Assembly: GCA_002816455.1 (NCBI GenBank)
Contig: MUCR01000006.1
Span: 11,148-75,147, forward strand
Length of the DNA: 64,000 bases
Direction of reading: 5' to 3'
From: SAR202 cluster bacterium Io17-Chloro-G4
GTDB taxonomy: Bacteria; Chloroflexota; Dehalococcoidia; Lucifugimonadales; UBA3495
Below, one piece after another: positions 3,812 to 61,500 of the stretch. The notes beneath the pieces were generated by a model. That model saw only the letters and a program-made list of their open reading frames with translations, did no database searches and was not told where the DNA came from. How positions within the stretch are numbered: position 1 is the stretch's first letter; every line of letters begins with the position of its first letter. The translations under genes were made by a program, and so were the position numbers.

Positions 3812-3892
3812 CCGTCATTCCGGCGAAGGCCGGAATCCAGGAAACGGTTTGAACCTCCACATTTCTGGACACCGGCCTTCGCCGGTGAGACG
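3812..3892. repeat. Inverted-repeat element, family B' (GTCATTCCGGCGAAGGCCGGAATC type)
   Basis: gtcattccggcgaaggccgg ... ccggccttcgccggtgagac form an imperfect inverted repeat. A related arm occurs at 41654-41680. Confidence 0.6.
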
Positions 3893-32925: not shown

Positions 32926-32999
32926 ACCGCAGAGAGCGCGGAGACCGCAGAGTTAATAAATAAGCCTTTCTCTGCGGTCTCGGCGAACTCTGCGGTGAA
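32926..32999. repeat. Inverted-repeat element, family C (CACCGCAGAGAGCGCGGAGACCGCAGAG ... CTCTGCGGT...CTCTGCGGTGAA)
   Basis: Lies between convergent genes. Other copies are at 49350-49432 and 59126-59220. Confidence 0.8.
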
Positions 33000-49349: not shown

Positions 49350-49432
49350 TTCACCGCAGAGAGCGCGGAGACCGCAGAGGGAAATACAAATGGACGATAA
49401 TTCTCTGCGAACTCGGCATCCTCTGCGGTGAA
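49350..49432. repeat. Family C inverted-repeat element
   Basis: ttcaccgcagagagcgcggagaccgcagag...ctctgcgaactcggcatcctctgcggtgaa between the convergent NHL and glnS genes. Confidence 0.8.
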
Positions 49433-56936: not shown

Positions 56937-57191
56937 ATGTCGAGTGCAGATCACCTAAATACTTACGCCGAAGGCTGGACCAAAGGGGAGGCAGCCATCA
57001 TCTTAAGGGCGGTGGACGATGGTTACACGCTAGACGATCCCAACTTCGGGATGATATCCAAGGGAGAGTTTTCCGATTACCTGGCTGGCTTCAAGCAGCA
57101 AGTAGAATCCATACGTGGAAACATCGGTGGCTCTCTCATAGAACTCACCGAGATTGTCACTCAGGAGGAAGCAGGAATCTTGACTGCTTGA
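56937..57191 (+). CDS. Hypothetical NTF2/SnoaL-like protein; the reading frame stays open past TGA (57189-57191) to 57305
   Basis: 84 aa to the TGA. 37 further in-frame codons (AWWSVPGTEIQGTGLIKVGDKGVVSERLTYYTKLADS) look like the missing beta-strands of an approximately 120-aa NTF2-like fold. Confidence 0.45.
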   Translation: MSSADHLNTYAEGWTKGEAAIILRAVDDGYTLDDPNFGMISKGEFSDYLAGFKQQVESIRGNIGGSLIELTEIVTQEEAGILTA

Positions 57192-57350: not shown

Positions 57351-58727
57351 ATGTCCGAACAAGAACTGCGTATCATTGCTCCCACGGCCATCGTGGGCTA
57401 CGGTTTTCAGGAAAGTTCCTTGGAGCGGGTCCTCCAGAAAGACCCTCACCTGATTGCTTGCGACGGAGGCAGCACCGATCCAGGACCCAACTACTTGGGC
57501 ATGGGCAAAGCCTTTGTGGGCCGGGATGCCGCCAAGCGCGACCTTTCTTTGATGCTTCATGCGGCGGTGGACCGGAAGATCCCCATGATTGTCGGTACCA
57601 GCGGCGGAGCCGGCGGCGATGCTCACCTCCAATGGACCCGGGAAATCGTCGAAGAAATCGCCAGGGAAAACAATCTGCATTTCAAGATGGCCTTGATCCA
57701 CGCCGAGCAGTCCAAGGAATACGTCGCTAAAAAACTTGAAGATGGCAGGGTTGAACCCATCTGGCCTCTGGGGGCCCTGGACCCCGGAGCCGTAGCCAGG
57801 TCAACCAACATCGTGGGCATGGCCGGCGCCGAGCCCTACATCGAAGCCTTGGGCGGAGGCGCTCAGGTAATCCTCTGTGGCCGCTCCGACGACGCAGCCA
57901 TTTTCGCTGCGATGCCCATAAAAGAAGAGTTCGACCCGGCGTTGGGTTGGGTGGCCGGAAAGCTGTTGGAATGCGGTGCCGCGTGTGCCGTGCCCCGGCA
58001 AAAATACGGCAGCGAAGGCATTACCGTCACGGTGCGGGAAGACCATATTTTGGTCGAGCCCAACCATCCCGGATTGACCTGCACTCCCTTGAGCGTTTCC
58101 ACGTTTTTCTTGCACGAAAACGAAACGCCCCTTTACCACACCGAGCCATCGGGAGTATTGGACTTGACCGCCCTTGATTGTCAGGCGGTAGACGAACGAA
58201 CCGTGAAGATCACCGGCGCCCAATTCCATCCTCGAGAAAAGTACACCATCCGGTTGGAGGGAGTGGAGTTGGTGGGCTACAGGTGCATCTGCGTGTCCTA
58301 CACGAGAGACCCGGTGCTGGTCCAGAGCATTGACGGCTACTTGGATGCCGTCCGGAAGTTGGTCGTTAGCCGAGTAGACGGCATGGGCGTGCCCGCTGAA
58401 GACTACAAGTTGGTCTTCCGCGTGATTGGCAAAAACGCAGTCATGGGGGAGCGAGAGCCAGTAAAAGAGATACTGACCCACGAGTTGGGGATAATAATGG
58501 AAGCTGTGGCTTCGACTCAGGAGTTGGCCAATGAAATCCTGGGCTTGGCCCGCCAGGCTGGGAAGAACTTGCACTATGAAGGCAAGCTATGCGACGAAGG
58601 ATGCATCACATATCCCTACTCGCCATCGGACATTCCCGCTGGCCCAGTTTACGAGTACAACATGCTCCACGCTGTTGAACCGGACAGTCCTTTGGAGATG
58701 TTTCCCGTCGAGTACGTGACGGTTTAG
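57351..58727 (+). CDS. AtuA-like (DUF1446) protein
   Basis: 458 aa. N-terminal RIIAPTAIVGYGF....L.......P..IACDGGSTDPGP.YLG is typical of acyclic-terpene-utilisation AtuA family proteins. Confidence 0.75.
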   Translation: MSEQELRIIAPTAIVGYGFQESSLERVLQKDPHLIACDGGSTDPGPNYLGMGKAFVGRDAAKRDLSLMLHAAVDRKIPMIVGTSGGAGGDAHLQWTREIVEEIARENNLHFKMALIHAEQSKEYVAKKLEDGRVEPIWPLGALDPGAVARSTNIVGMAGAEPYIEALGGGAQVILCGRSDDAAIFAAMPIKEEFDPALGWVAGKLLECGAACAVPRQKYGSEGITVTVREDHILVEPNHPGLTCTPLSVSTFFLHENETPLYHTEPSGVLDLTALDCQAVDERTVKITGAQFHPREKYTIRLEGVELVGYRCICVSYTRDPVLVQSIDGYLDAVRKLVVSRVDGMGVPAEDYKLVFRVIGKNAVMGEREPVKEILTHELGIIMEAVASTQELANEILGLARQAGKNLHYEGKLCDEGCITYPYSPSDIPAGPVYEYNMLHAVEPDSPLEMFPVEYVTV

Positions 58728-58764
58728 CTGGTTAGCTATCAGCTATCAGCGAGCAGCGGCCAGC
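58726..58764. repeat. Heptamer tandem repeat, family D
   Basis: agctg gttagc tatcagc tatcagc gagcagc ggccagc, beginning at the AtuA stop codon. Confidence 0.7.
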
Positions 58765-58809
58765 TCCTGCTATGAGTTCAAACTGTTTTGAGGAATCACA
58801 GGGGGAAAT

Positions 58810-59118
58810 ATGGCTAGAATACGTGACTTGGCGGTGATTTGCCGCAGCAAGAACGCCAATCCCTTTTCCTTAACCCTGGACATGGTTTTCCCGGATCAGC
58901 AAACGTTTGAGCGAGTTCGAACCTCCGGGGTCATTTCCAAGCAGCTAATTTCCCGGCTCTATAGCGTGCCAGAAAGCGACGTGCTATTGGTGGAATTCCC
59001 CCCTGCTAACGCATTCAAGGCCACCATCCCCCGGCTCCACGGATCAGGCGCCGTGGAGGACTCGGACGTTTACGGCGCTCAGCAGCACGGGCCTCTGATG
59101 GACGTGGAGATTCCGTAG
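58810..59118 (+). CDS. DUF4387-like small protein (usual partner of DUF1446/AtuA)
   Basis: 102 aa. RDLA...RSKNANPF..TLD..F.D...F..V..SG.I....I..LY. Position directly after the AtuA-like gene. Confidence 0.7.
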   Translation: MARIRDLAVICRSKNANPFSLTLDMVFPDQQTFERVRTSGVISKQLISRLYSVPESDVLLVEFPPANAFKATIPRLHGSGAVEDSDVYGAQQHGPLMDVEIP

Positions 59119-59125
59119 ACACCGA

Positions 59126-59220
59126 TTCACCGCAGAAGCGCGGAGAGCGCAGAGACGAATCAAAAAAATAATTTCCCTTCGCACAGCTTTAACCATCTAG
59201 CTCTGCGCCTCTGCGGTGAA
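59126..59220. repeat. Family C inverted-repeat element
   Basis: ttcaccgcagaagcgcggagagcgcagag ... ctctgcgcctctgcggtgaa, directly after the DUF4387 stop codon. Confidence 0.8.
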
Positions 59221-59249
59221 CCAAACCCCATTGGGAGTCGCAAACTAAC

Positions 59250-59426
59250 ATGGAAGAATCAACTGGCTTGAAGGGCAAATCCGGTGGCGCGAGAGGCTTA
59301 TTCTCAGGGCGGGCCGCGACCTGGTTGGCGCTGGCTGCTTTGGCAATTTCCGTGGGCCACGTGGTTTATGCGGTCTGGCGGGACCACATCAACAACGGGG
59401 AAGGACTTCTAAACGTCCTAGGGTAA
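59250..59426 (+). CDS. Candidate small single-pass membrane protein (58 aa, below the ORF-track cutoff)
   Basis: MEESTGLKGKSGGARGLFSGRAATWLALAALAISVGHVVYAVWRDHINNGEGLLNVLG. GGGAG lies about 13 nt upstream. One clear TM helix. Confidence 0.3.
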   Translation: MEESTGLKGKSGGARGLFSGRAATWLALAALAISVGHVVYAVWRDHINNGEGLLNVLG

Positions 59427-59502
59427 CAGATGGCGCAGCGCCGCCTGGTCACCAAGAAATACTATTGTCCGGTCCCGCTTGTTCGGAGCGAAGGTTGTAA
59501 CC

Positions 59503-60474
59503 ATGATCATGCGATTGTTGAGCCGGTCAAAACGACCGGACCCGGGTGTCTACGCTCAAGTAATTGGCGGACCATTCCTGCCGGGTGACCAGGTAGACGT
59601 TGAGTTAATCTCTACCGGTGAAGCTGGCGAGAAAGAAGGCGGCGCCAAAGAGGTTTTTCTGGATTTGGTTTGCCGGGAGACCTTTTGGTACACCGTTAAA
59701 TCCACCGGCGCTGCATTCATCGGACAGTACCCTGGGCACGGGGAGGAGAACCACACCGGCATGTCTTACACGGCGGCAGGACGGCCTGGCCGGTTCAAAA
59801 CGTCCAAGAACCTGGCATGCTTGTCCAGCCTCGTGCTTCTGAATAGTCACGATCTAGACCACGGCAACTTGAGGGGAACCGCCACATTTCAGCTCCCCAC
59901 CGATGCGGCTCCTAGTATTCAGGGCGAAACCGTGAATGTAGACTGGGAGTTGCGGTTGAGGTTGAACTCCGCCCCGTCTCAGGAATCTACAACAGTGGGC
60001 CACATCACGGTGCTGTCTAGTCCCGTGGGAACTACCGGCGACCAAGAACGCCTTCATGGGTCAGGCCATCGTCCGGCTGCCATCAGCAAGACCAGCACGG
60101 CCCGATGCGATGTGTCTTTAGCGCTGGCTCAAGACGTTATGAGAACAGGCCAAACTTTGCGCGGCGTCTTAAATGCGAGAGCGATTACCGATATCAACGT
60201 CACCAAAGTCCAAGCGGAATTGGAGTGCTTGGAGCAAGCTGGCGCCAAAGAATCCTCAGCAGTTTACGCAACCGCCTACCTCCAAGGCCGATCATCGCTC
60301 CAGGCAAGGCAGGAATACCAATGGCCTTTCCAGTTGGAGATTCCAGACCTGATGCTGCCCAGCGCAAACTTTGACGAAACATGGGTGGTTTGGCGGGTGA
60401 AGGGCATCTTAGGTCGAACATTTCGGACGCGTCTGGAGACGGCTGCGCAGGTTCAGGTGTTTACCTCGGGCTAA
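59503..60474 (+). CDS. Hypothetical protein, paralog 1 of a tandem pair (possible Spo0M/arrestin-like beta-sandwich)
   Basis: Approximately 323 aa from the ATG at 59503. Shares ordered motifs with the next gene: C[RT]ET[FY]W, F.[LI]P..A.P[ST][IV]QG...N..W.L, CD[VM].L[AS]L, G.T..GVL, [FW]PF.L..P. The PG[DE].V.V.L / V.L.L.C.E..W pattern resembles arrestin-N/Spo0M. Confidence 0.4.
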   Translation: MIMRLLSRSKRPDPGVYAQVIGGPFLPGDQVDVELISTGEAGEKEGGAKEVFLDLVCRETFWYTVKSTGAAFIGQYPGHGEENHTGMSYTAAGRPGRFKTSKNLACLSSLVLLNSHDLDHGNLRGTATFQLPTDAAPSIQGETVNVDWELRLRLNSAPSQESTTVGHITVLSSPVGTTGDQERLHGSGHRPAAISKTSTARCDVSLALAQDVMRTGQTLRGVLNARAITDINVTKVQAELECLEQAGAKESSAVYATAYLQGRSSLQARQEYQWPFQLEIPDLMLPSANFDETWVVWRVKGILGRTFRTRLETAAQVQVFTSG

Positions 60475-60504
60475 AGGCTGGGACAATAAACAAAAACCGG
60501 GGAA

Positions 60505-60555
60505 CGCCCCCATCCTAACTCTCCCCCGTAAAGGGGGAGAGTTAGGATGGGGGCG
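60505..60555. repeat. Perfect 23-bp-stem palindrome (family E-related); probable terminator or attenuator between the paralogs
   Basis: CGCCCCCATCCTAACTCTCCCCC-gtaaa-GGGGGAGAGTTAGGATGGGGGCG. Confidence 0.8.
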
Positions 60556-60624
60556 CGGTCGTACTCGTCAATCTTGCATAGATGGAATTAGGTCTCCGGA
60601 ACAGGATTTAGGGAGGTTTCTCCT

Positions 60625-61500
60625 ATGGTGTCCCGATTGCGCTCGCCAAATGCCGATCTGTCCATTGAGCTGGATGAAGGCCAGCACCAGTTGGGAAAGC
60701 CCATCACCGGCAGGGTTACCTTGCTTCCCGGCGAGGGCTTTGAGATGCGCGGAGCAAAAGCGGAGTTTATTTGCACCGAGACCTACTGGTTGAGGGTCCG
60801 GCGGACAAGTCGATTCGGCTCCGCCGAAACCAACGAACCCGCCGCCACGTTGATACGCGAATATTCCCATCCCCTATTTGTCGGTTCGGAAATCGCCAAC
60901 CTGATGCCTCAAGTAGGTGACATCAACTTCACCATCCCCCTAAATGCGCCCCCCACGGTCCAAGGAGGAGTCGCTAATCTTGCCTGGCGTTTGATAGTGA
61001 CCGTGGACGTGGCACGAGGCCGGGACATCAGCCGGGAGATTGATCTGATAGTTATGCCGGCCCCCGGTGAAAGGGCCGATAATACCCAGCCAACAGAAAA
61101 CGCCGCTCCAGCATTAACCCAGTTCGCTGAGTGCGACATGAATTTATCTCTAACCGCTCACCGGGTATGCATGGGAGAGACGGTGGACGGCGTCCTAAGG
61201 GTCTATCCGAAAACAGGCCGCACCCCGCAAGCGGCCCGTGTGGAATTGATGCGCGCAGAAGCGGCGGGAACCAGCAATGCCGATTTAAGCATCGGCGTAG
61301 TGGAGTTCCAAATCCCGGAGTCTACTGGTGCGGATGAAGCGATGGAGTTCCCATTTTCTTTGCCGGTCCCGGAGTGCTTGTTAACCACCATCTCGGTGCA
61401 CGAAACTAGCGTTTCGTGGCGGGCGCGAGGGACGGTCACCGTCGGCAGGGGCAAGGAATTGGATATCAGCCAGAGGGTCACGGTCCGCGGGTCTTCTTAA
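60625..61500 (+). CDS. Hypothetical protein, paralog 2 of the tandem pair (possible Spo0M/arrestin-like beta-sandwich)
   Basis: 291 aa. SD GGGAGG upstream. N-terminus LSIELDEGQHQLGKPITGRVTLLPGEGFEMRGAKAEFICTETYW. Collinear motifs with paralog 1. Confidence 0.4.
   Translation: MVSRLRSPNADLSIELDEGQHQLGKPITGRVTLLPGEGFEMRGAKAEFICTETYWLRVRRTSRFGSAETNEPAATLIREYSHPLFVGSEIANLMPQVGDINFTIPLNAPPTVQGGVANLAWRLIVTVDVARGRDISREIDLIVMPAPGERADNTQPTENAAPALTQFAECDMNLSLTAHRVCMGETVDGVLRVYPKTGRTPQAARVELMRAEAAGTSNADLSIGVVEFQIPESTGADEAMEFPFSLPVPECLLTTISVHETSVSWRARGTVTVGRGKELDISQRVTVRGSS

Follow-up and report, generated by a model that had tools for sequence, protein, structure and literature searches.

What do three short-spaced genes on the + strand of a Dehalococcoidia chromosome encode, and do their products work together? 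The genes fill positions 59250-61500 of a 64,000-nucleotide (nt) stretch of contig MUCR01000006.1 from SAR202 cluster bacterium Io17-Chloro-G4; this whole stretch is what we call the window. We name the genes S (59250-59426; 58 amino acids (aa), with one predicted transmembrane (TM) helix), A (59503-60474; 323 aa counted from its ATG) and B (60625-61500; 291 aa). A first-pass annotation had seen here a small membrane open reading frame (ORF), two paralogous proteins of a possible arrestin/Spo0M-like fold and a hairpin between them, and it had placed all four elements correctly. The locus represents a two-lobe bacterial arrestin family, with an insert-bearing subfamily specific to Dehalococcoidia that consistently lies behind a conserved micro-membrane protein; both the fold and the family are recognisable with standard tools. 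The words "undescribed system", used of the locus in that annotation, are too strong: the proteins are recognisable members of the arrestin clan, and a joint action of the genes is conjecture.

Fold and paralogy of A and B

We take the start of A to be the ATG and not the TTG at 59479, which would give eight more residues, because 33 homologues have their first residue where this ATG lies and share its N-terminus, MI(L/M)RLL. The ENA gene call for a 99%-identical copy of A (P0001) is truncated: it starts at Met87 and has 237 aa, so that the conserved insert described below is missing along with half of the N lobe. The 99%-identical copy of B (P0037) is found on a contig of 96,617 nt. Each of the three genes has its own Shine-Dalgarno-like motif as read from the sequence, namely GGGAG at 59233-59237, 12 nt 5' of the ATG of S, GAAGG at 59490-59494 for A, and a strong AGGGAGG at 60610-60616, 8 nt 5' of the start of B.

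The paralogy of A and B is far beyond chance. BLASTP aligns them over 272 columns at 25% identity (E 6e-20), with a single 31-residue gap that corresponds to the extra segment of A. Both proteins exceed the gathering score of the Pfam model Arrestin_N (24.9), A with 36.4 bits and B with 25.8 bits. The C-terminal half of A (residues 203-282) matches Spo0M at 18.3 bits, under the cut-off of 23, and B has no match to that model. Neither protein matches Arrestin_C or the Vps26 Pfam model at E <= 1; Arrestin_C matches are precomputed for the orthologues P0024, P0031 and P0046. The A profile, searched against the PDB, returns insignificant matches only (E >= 0.07).

Structure prediction of each protein and a fold search lead to the arrestins in both cases. 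The AlphaFold2 (AF2) model of A, made from an alignment of 34 sequences, has a mean predicted local distance difference test score (pLDDT) of 74 and a predicted template-modelling score (pTM) of 0.48; for B, with 10 sequences, the values are 64.8 and 0.45. Both models are essentially all-beta and consist of two lobes with a disordered linker between them. The model of A has no helix, and that of B has two very short helical turns only. In a Foldseek search of the PDB, A finds cone arrestin (1suj, E 2e-12), then beta-arrestins, ARRD-6, Vps26 and TXNIP; B finds Vps26 (E 8e-11), then ARRD-6, TXNIP and arrestins. The top rows hold arrestin-clan proteins only, at a probability of 1.0 and with about 310-390 aligned columns that cover both lobes. 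With Arrestin_N above its gathering score as well, we consider the predicted arrestin fold of A and B to be solid; the detailed geometry of the models is not.

No catalytic motif and no enzyme-family match is found in A or B with Pfam, NCBIfam, PADLOC or PHROGs, in agreement with the annotation, and this lack of a catalytic signature indicates that the two proteins are binding scaffolds and not enzymes. The ratio of nonsynonymous to synonymous substitution rates (dN/dS) is 0.22-0.27 for A and 0.18-0.32 for B where it is intact, and all three genes, where intact, are under purifying selection. A word-indexed search recovers 36 homologues of A and 13 of B, all of them metagenomic and unnamed.

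A wider family and its known relatives

How far do these proteins extend beyond the immediate lineage? A profile of the A alignment was searched exhaustively against 1.84 billion representatives (clusters at 50% identity). It matches 682 clusters when the limit is set to E <= 1e-3, and 288 when it is set to E <= 1e-10. A-type proteins account for only about seven of the clusters, the remainder being B-like proteins of about 280-300 aa, and a third homologue search with a broad alignment gave, among the 8000 candidates that it covered, mostly B orthologues again. Among 105 aligned sequences (104 relatives and the B of the window), Pfam matches are to Arrestin_N in 104, Arrestin_C in 94, Spo0M in 68, Rgp1 in 48 and Vps26 in 14, the last counted at E <= 0.01. 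When the family profile is compared with the PDB sequences, VPS26C comes first at E 9.4e-9 with a match that runs near end to end (profile 12-269, residues 4-277), and ARRD-6, beta-arrestin-1, ARRDC3 and TXNIP follow at about 1e-8; Spo0M (5cl2) is matched over 38 residues only, at E 2e-4. By these profiles the family reads as one of canonical two-lobe arrestin-type proteins, whose distance from the eukaryotic families is no greater than that from Spo0M. The arrestin half of the earlier "arrestin/Spo0M-like" description stands and the Spo0M half needs correction, A and B being nearer to the eukaryotic arrestin and Vps26 profiles.

The family is a sparse and unnamed bacterial branch of the arrestin clan. 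Its members are called "hypothetical protein" in their sources or, in the case of the TM-fused MBI4337815.1, "sporulation protein [Chloroflexota]", and there is a member from Actinomycetota (MEW6636227.1). In nine relatives (P0061, P0103, P0109, P0127, P0146, P0148, P0156, P0160 and P0164) and in P0193, one to four predicted TM helices are fused directly N-terminal to the arrestin domain; P0193 has in addition a zinc ribbon and a C-terminal TM helix. Because basic residues usually follow the last fused helix, the arrestin domain of these proteins is probably cytoplasmic. The fusions are the only independent hint of where the family works.

The position of A next to B might suggest a recent tandem duplication, and this is ruled out by members of the family found elsewhere. 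Each of the two matches P0051, P0054 and P0055 (30-33% identity, E 1e-37 to 1e-42) better than it matches its neighbour (E about 1e-21), which identifies A and B, at the level of sequence comparison, as old and anciently diverged paralogs. The A subfamily, which bears the insert, is found only in Dehalococcoidia. Its motif occurs in 2 of 185,579 species-representative genomes, both of them metagenome-assembled genomes of Dehalococcoidia (UBA1141 and OY761986.2).

The known members with which A and B can be compared belong to the arrestin fold family, Pfam clan CL0135, taken as Arrestin_N plus Arrestin_C (PMC5501109). The alpha-arrestins (ARRDC3, TXNIP and C. elegans ARRD-6; PF00339 plus PF02752) have, like A and B, two beta-sandwich lobes and a similar size; Arrestin_N is above threshold in A and B, most of the family matches both Arrestin_N and Arrestin_C, and both the Foldseek and the profile searches reach ARRD-6, ARRDC3 and TXNIP. 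Alpha-arrestins are also without helix I, as are the models of A and B. They carry, however, a PPxY tail for the recruitment of Nedd4/Rsp5, whereas A and B have no PPxY and nothing beyond the final strand of the C lobe; the sequence identity is only 9-16%, and A has its extra conserved 30-residue insert. Bacteria are not known to have a ubiquitin-ligase or endocytic machinery to be recruited. The visual and beta-arrestins are marked by a polar core, a three-element lock of the C-tail, helix I and the binding of phosphorylated 7TM receptors. A direct reading of A and B gives no C-terminal tail past the C lobe.

The Vps26 and VPS26C proteins of retromer and retriever provide the best full-length profile match of the family in the PDB and the top Foldseek match for B, and they are of similar length (about 290-300 aa) and tailless. 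The Vps26 Pfam model, in contrast, is reached by neither A nor B and by only the 14 family sequences counted above. Bacteria are not known to have Vps35 or Vps29 partners, and neither Pfam family was called in the loci examined, where no search aimed at Vps35 or Vps29 was made.

No arrestin-clan family other than Spo0M (PF07070), the sporulation-control protein of B. subtilis, has been described from bacteria and archaea (PMC2515105, PMC5501109); Spo0M has ties to the divisome, to FtsH and to the membrane (PMC5325327). What A, B and their relatives share with it is the weak match of the A C-half, the 68 family sequences that match the model and the name of one TM-fused relative; what separates them is the missed threshold and the short alignment with 5cl2. 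Spo0M has one arrestin-like domain followed by a different C-terminal domain, whereas A and B have two arrestin lobes. Dehalococcoidia are not known to sporulate. The phrases "bacterial arrestin" and "prokaryotic arrestin" are used by no paper in the open literature searched.

The insert of A, the small protein S and their possible pairing

What distinguishes A from B is a conserved segment at residues 57-100 (59671-59802, + strand; CRETFWYTVKSTGAAFIGQYPGHGEENHTGMSYTAAGRPGRFKT), with the consensus C-R-E-T-F-W-Y-T-V-K-S-T-G-A-A-F-I-G-x-Y-P-G-H-x-E-E-N-x-x-G-x-P-Y-T-A-A-G-R-P-G-R-Y-K-T. The segment is almost invariant across 34 A-type proteins whose overall identity is no more than 38-68%, and the proportion of nonsynonymous differences within it (pN) is 0.02-0.16 against a proportion of synonymous differences (pS) of 0.51-0.61. 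In the model the extra residues, about 30 in number, lie at the tip of a long N-lobe beta-hairpin (strands 49-65 and 96-115), with residues 68-93 at pLDDT < 50. The insert is absent from B and from the wider family, whose members align with the A profile in two blocks and leave this segment out. A loop of a binding scaffold that is under such strong constraint, and is probably flexible, is most simply taken as a putative partner-binding site.

The location of the tip on a known arrestin can be examined by profile alignment. With hhalign, the family profile and the N domain of beta-arrestin-1 are aligned at a probability of only 30%, pairing EFICTETYW with TLTCAFRYG and setting RLRSPNADLSIEL, at the N-terminus of B, against KKASPNGKLTVYL in beta-arrestin. 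The ARRB1 sequence for this comparison was entered by hand, and its N-domain part agrees with the PDB alignment of the profile search. The tip of the A hairpin may correspond to the finger-loop position of beta-arrestin-1, which we offer as a lead and not as a result. A separate likeness, between A residues ~49-100 (window 59647-59802) and the framework of antibody heavy-chain variable (VH) domains, with the pattern SLRLSCAAS.GFT..S.G..WVRQAPGKG.E......G.TYYA.SVKGRFTISRD, is not significant in the PDB search (E 0.1-0.6) and is probably a chance similarity between beta-sandwich strands.

We now consider S, for which the annotation had proposed a check of conservation. The gene is kept in other loci: in the aligned set the copies of six other loci are 53-81% identical to that of the window, with pairwise dN/dS against the window copy of 0.19-0.46. 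This makes S a real gene, and one under purifying selection. It has a single hydrophobic stretch, ATWLALAALAISVGHVVYAVW. The 24 invariant columns of the 7-locus alignment are concentrated in the TM helix, whose consensus A-T-W-L-A-L-A-A-L-x-I-S-V-G-H-V-x-Y-A-I-W is nearly invariant, and in the tail, where R-D-H-(I/L)-N-x-G-x-G-L-L (WRDH(I/L)N.G.GLL) is almost invariant; the N-terminal ~20 residues are variable, Gly/Ser-rich and basic. S has no match in Pfam, NCBIfam, PADLOC or PHROGs. In L020 (361-519) the gene is present yet missed by the gene finder, as it is in L021, and micro-proteins of the S family are under-annotated.

Could S instead be the precursor of a small secreted peptide, with a signal peptide cleaved after V-Y-A to release (I/V)WRDH(I/L)N.G.GLL...? 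A direct reading does give a basic n-region, a 14-residue h-region and V-x-A at -3/-1 before the conserved tail; that tail is the most conserved soluble part of the protein, and the sequence of S is kept even without A or B. The hydrophobic segment, however, is itself almost invariant (S34, G36, H37, Y40, W43), which speaks against a signal peptide because such a core is typical of helix packing in the membrane. The n-region is also long (~22 residues) and no maturation or export gene lies nearby, so that we regard a secreted peptide as quite improbable.

The next question is whether S belongs with A. S is directly upstream of A in 13 distinct loci, and this adjacency is kept in every locus that has A on a contig of sufficient reach, with a spacer of 52-131 nt. 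The gene 5' of S is of four kinds (DUF4387, isochorismatase, threonine aldolase or SnoaL-like). The complete S-A-B order is intact in the window, L002/L003, L004, L007 and L016, and in L020 S and A occur together with a B-like paralog of greater divergence. S and A are followed by a decayed B in L006, where an in-frame internal deletion leaves an 86-aa ORF, and in L015 and L017, which share the same frameshift in a G-run. L001/L008 and L005 have S and A only, in L019 B is absent and an MFS transporter lies 3' of A, and L013 has S and A on a contig that ends within A. S occurs alone, directly facing RarA, in L014 and L018, and the sequence upstream of A in L022 is too short to judge. B is then intact in six loci, decayed in three and absent in three. 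The module of a small TM protein and two paralogs, as the annotation had conceived it, survives in its S-A adjacency and fails as a fixed trio, since about half of the loci lack B or have it broken by a frameshift or an internal deletion, and S is alone in two. A is the constant arrestin member of the locus, and B is an accessory, frequently lost paralog.

Two details of gene loss may be added. The frameshift in B falls at PPTVKGG (L015 5289-6174 and L017 1385-2267), and because it is the same in contigs of two different metagenomes, it probably marks a real pseudogene and not a sequencing error. In L018, a locus without A and B, a 100-aa ORF (1990-2292) joins an AtuA-like N-terminus (MSQPELRIIAPTAIVGYGF...) to the end of DUF4387 (...MDVEIPL), the result of a large in-frame AtuA/DUF4387 deletion.

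Combining these observations, we put forward a tentative arrangement, which we hold to be quite possible though somewhat short of probable. A and B would be adaptors that act on the cytoplasmic side of the membrane. A would hold a partner through the almost invariant insert of ~30 residues on its N-lobe hairpin tip, and S, encoded just upstream, would be the best candidate for its membrane partner or anchor. B, as an accessory paralog, would tune what A does or do the same, and would be dispensable. The membrane link is drawn from the TM-fused relatives and from S being a TM protein; the link of S with A from their adjacency in 13 loci despite the varying upstream gene, together with the purifying selection on S; and the accessory role of B from a presence that varies across loci, yet with dN/dS of 0.18-0.32 where it is intact.

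A considerable set of points weighs against this arrangement. S-A interaction and co-transcription are both conjectural. The S-A loci are all of one lineage and share broadly the same neighbourhood, so the adjacency may be inherited synteny. L014 and L018 keep an intact S although both A and B are gone, which points to a role of S independent of A. The positive-inside rule predicts the variable N-tail of S in the cytoplasm and its best-conserved tail outside, away from a cytoplasmic A. An hmmsearch with the S profile against 210 family proteins has a best E of 0.16, in non-TM regions, and so rejects homology of S to the TM segments fused to the relatives. Around distant family members the neighbouring genes are unrelated, with no recurring partner and no recurring small TM gene (two contexts, L009 and L011, share nothing). 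The finger-loop mapping comes from the low-probability alignment (30%) described above. Finally, the confidence of the models is modest (pTM 0.45-0.48), and the template-modelling scores to arrestins are only 0.3-0.4 because the relative orientation of the lobes is poorly determined.

Many of these points fit the chief rival, which we take seriously while considering it on the doubtful side: S would be an independent membrane protein unrelated to A and B, its adjacency inherited, and A and B would be soluble scaffolds with partners elsewhere. The persistence of S where A and B are gone, the wider synteny common to all loci (threonine aldolase to RarA and the LLM oxidoreductase), the separate Shine-Dalgarno motif of each gene with the variable S-A spacer, the distant members that have no recurring small TM neighbour and the predicted topology of S are all as this rival would have them. 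It accounts less well for an adjacency that outlasts four kinds of upstream neighbour and a divergence of A down to 39% identity, for the finding that no locus with enough upstream sequence has A without S (L022 being too short), and for the TM fusions of the relatives, which argue for membrane work of the family.

Palindromes, chromosomal setting and meaning

The spacer between A and B contains a perfect stem-loop (60505-60555), with arms of 23 nt at 60505-60527 and 60533-60555 that are 100% complementary and a 5-nt loop, GTAAA. The annotation had called it a 51-nt perfect palindrome; the perfect 23-bp arms are there, but the palindrome is not continuous, as the loop is not self-complementary. 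The predicted fold of the spacer is dominated by the hairpin (-76.6 kcal/mol, z = -6.2 against shuffles). There is no U-tract after it on the + strand, where the sequence downstream reads CGGTCGTACTCGTCAAT, and a terminator scan finds none on the + strand here; it is not a canonical intrinsic terminator on that strand. Known RNA families were also considered and rejected, Rfam giving only generic miRNA-precursor-like matches of 27-32 bits against gathering scores of 74-100.

Is the hairpin part of the design of the locus? The annotation had suggested that it attenuates B, and one may extend this to a purpose-built attenuator or terminator, or an mRNA-stability element, that fixes how strongly A and B are expressed relative to each other. 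In favour of this are the high stability of the stem, its place between two same-strand genes and the precedent of stem-loops of the repetitive extragenic palindromic (REP) type, which can stabilise upstream mRNA and lower downstream expression, as in E. coli malEFG. However, the hairpin is perfect only in the window: the short A-B spacers of L002, L007 and L016 have no inverted repeat, the spacer of L004 has a degenerate relative (...GGGGAAGGTTAGGATGGGGG...) and that of L006 a partial one. Together with the missing U-tract, the strong Shine-Dalgarno motif of B and the Rfam scores, this rules out a conserved attenuator of B and leaves a purpose-built regulatory element improbable.

Like REP-type palindromes, the hairpin is a GC-rich perfect stem-loop between same-strand genes that is variably present at the orthologous site. 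REP-type repeats have many copies per genome, whereas the hairpin has a single copy in the 64 kb of the window, with 3 mismatches allowed, which excludes a dispersed repeat within the window, and related copies are seen only at the orthologous spacers of L004 and L006; a dispersed family is thus conjecture. The most fitting reading of the hairpin is a lineage-specific, REP-like palindrome that entered this spacer in a single sub-lineage. What REP elements do elsewhere suggests that it may influence the A:B ratio in this strain: in the arrangement that we put forward, it might as a side effect make the transcript upstream more stable or reduce read-through into B, without belonging to the conserved design.

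Other palindromes occur in the window. An imperfect, REP-like inverted repeat lies in the spacer between DUF4387 and S (59126-59220), with 20-nt arms at 59126-59145 and 59201-59220 (TTCACCGCAGAAGCGCGGAG / CTCTGCGCCTCTGCGGTGAA) that are 55 nt apart, and it probably marks the boundary with the upstream operon. It belongs to a palindrome family built on TTCACCGCAGAGAGCGCGGAGACCGCAGAG in intergenic spacers (32926-32996, 49350-49432 and 59126-59220), with a similar element in the orthologous spacer of L006 (6917-6985); these look like REP-type elements of the lineage. The A-B hairpin differs in sequence from the palindrome family of the window (TTCACCGCAGAG...). A long imperfect inverted repeat at 3813-3892 (CGTCATTCCGGCGAAGGCCGGAATCCAGGAA / ...), with 31-nt arms of 81% complementarity, may be a second class of extragenic palindrome.

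The surroundings of the three genes are those of an ordinary chromosome segment. All loci share the order threonine aldolase, optional AtuA-like gene and DUF4387, optional isochorismatase and S-A-(B), which faces a convergent RarA/MgsA gene, LLM-type oxidoreductases and an acetyl-CoA carboxylase carboxyltransferase. In the window the AtuA-like protein (PF07287) and DUF4387 lie upstream at 57351-59118, a pair that relatives either have or lack as a unit, and an 84-aa ORF at 56937-57191 has a weak SnoaL_2 match. The regional GC is flat (0.52-0.62), and S, A and B have no match in PADLOC (at E <= 1), PHROGs or NCBIfam. From the uniform GC, the conserved synteny and the zero defence or phage matches we conclude that the region is native and that all three genes are genuine parts of this Dehalococcoidia chromosome. 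On the same evidence, we give hardly any credence to a mobile or anti-phage defence module. The patchy presence of B would suit it, small uncharacterised patchy cassettes of several genes being often defence systems, but the position is the same in all relatives, among housekeeping neighbours, and no integrase, nuclease, ATPase or other effector is present.

What does the locus mean for the family? In its widest form, which we consider unlikely as a whole, A would be a prokaryotic arrestin that engages the dedicated micro-protein S via an insert at the finger-loop position, a minimal bacterial "arrestin-receptor" pair, and the wider family of Chloroflexota and Actinomycetota would be a stock of membrane adaptors, a possible source of the eukaryotic alpha-arrestins and Vps26 or one that shares a principle with them. 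If the S-A pairing is not real, what results is a tidy annotation of two arrestin-clan proteins and one conserved micro-protein. If it is true, the pair would provide a simple and testable bacterial model of arrestin-fold adaptors that read membrane proteins, and would bear on the origin of the eukaryotic arrestin and Vps26 adaptors. The family shows the full two-lobe architecture of Arrestin_N and Arrestin_C in bacteria, with some members fixed to the membrane by TM helices, and these TM-fused relatives together with the S-A pairing give a concrete handle on the roles of the arrestin fold in bacteria.

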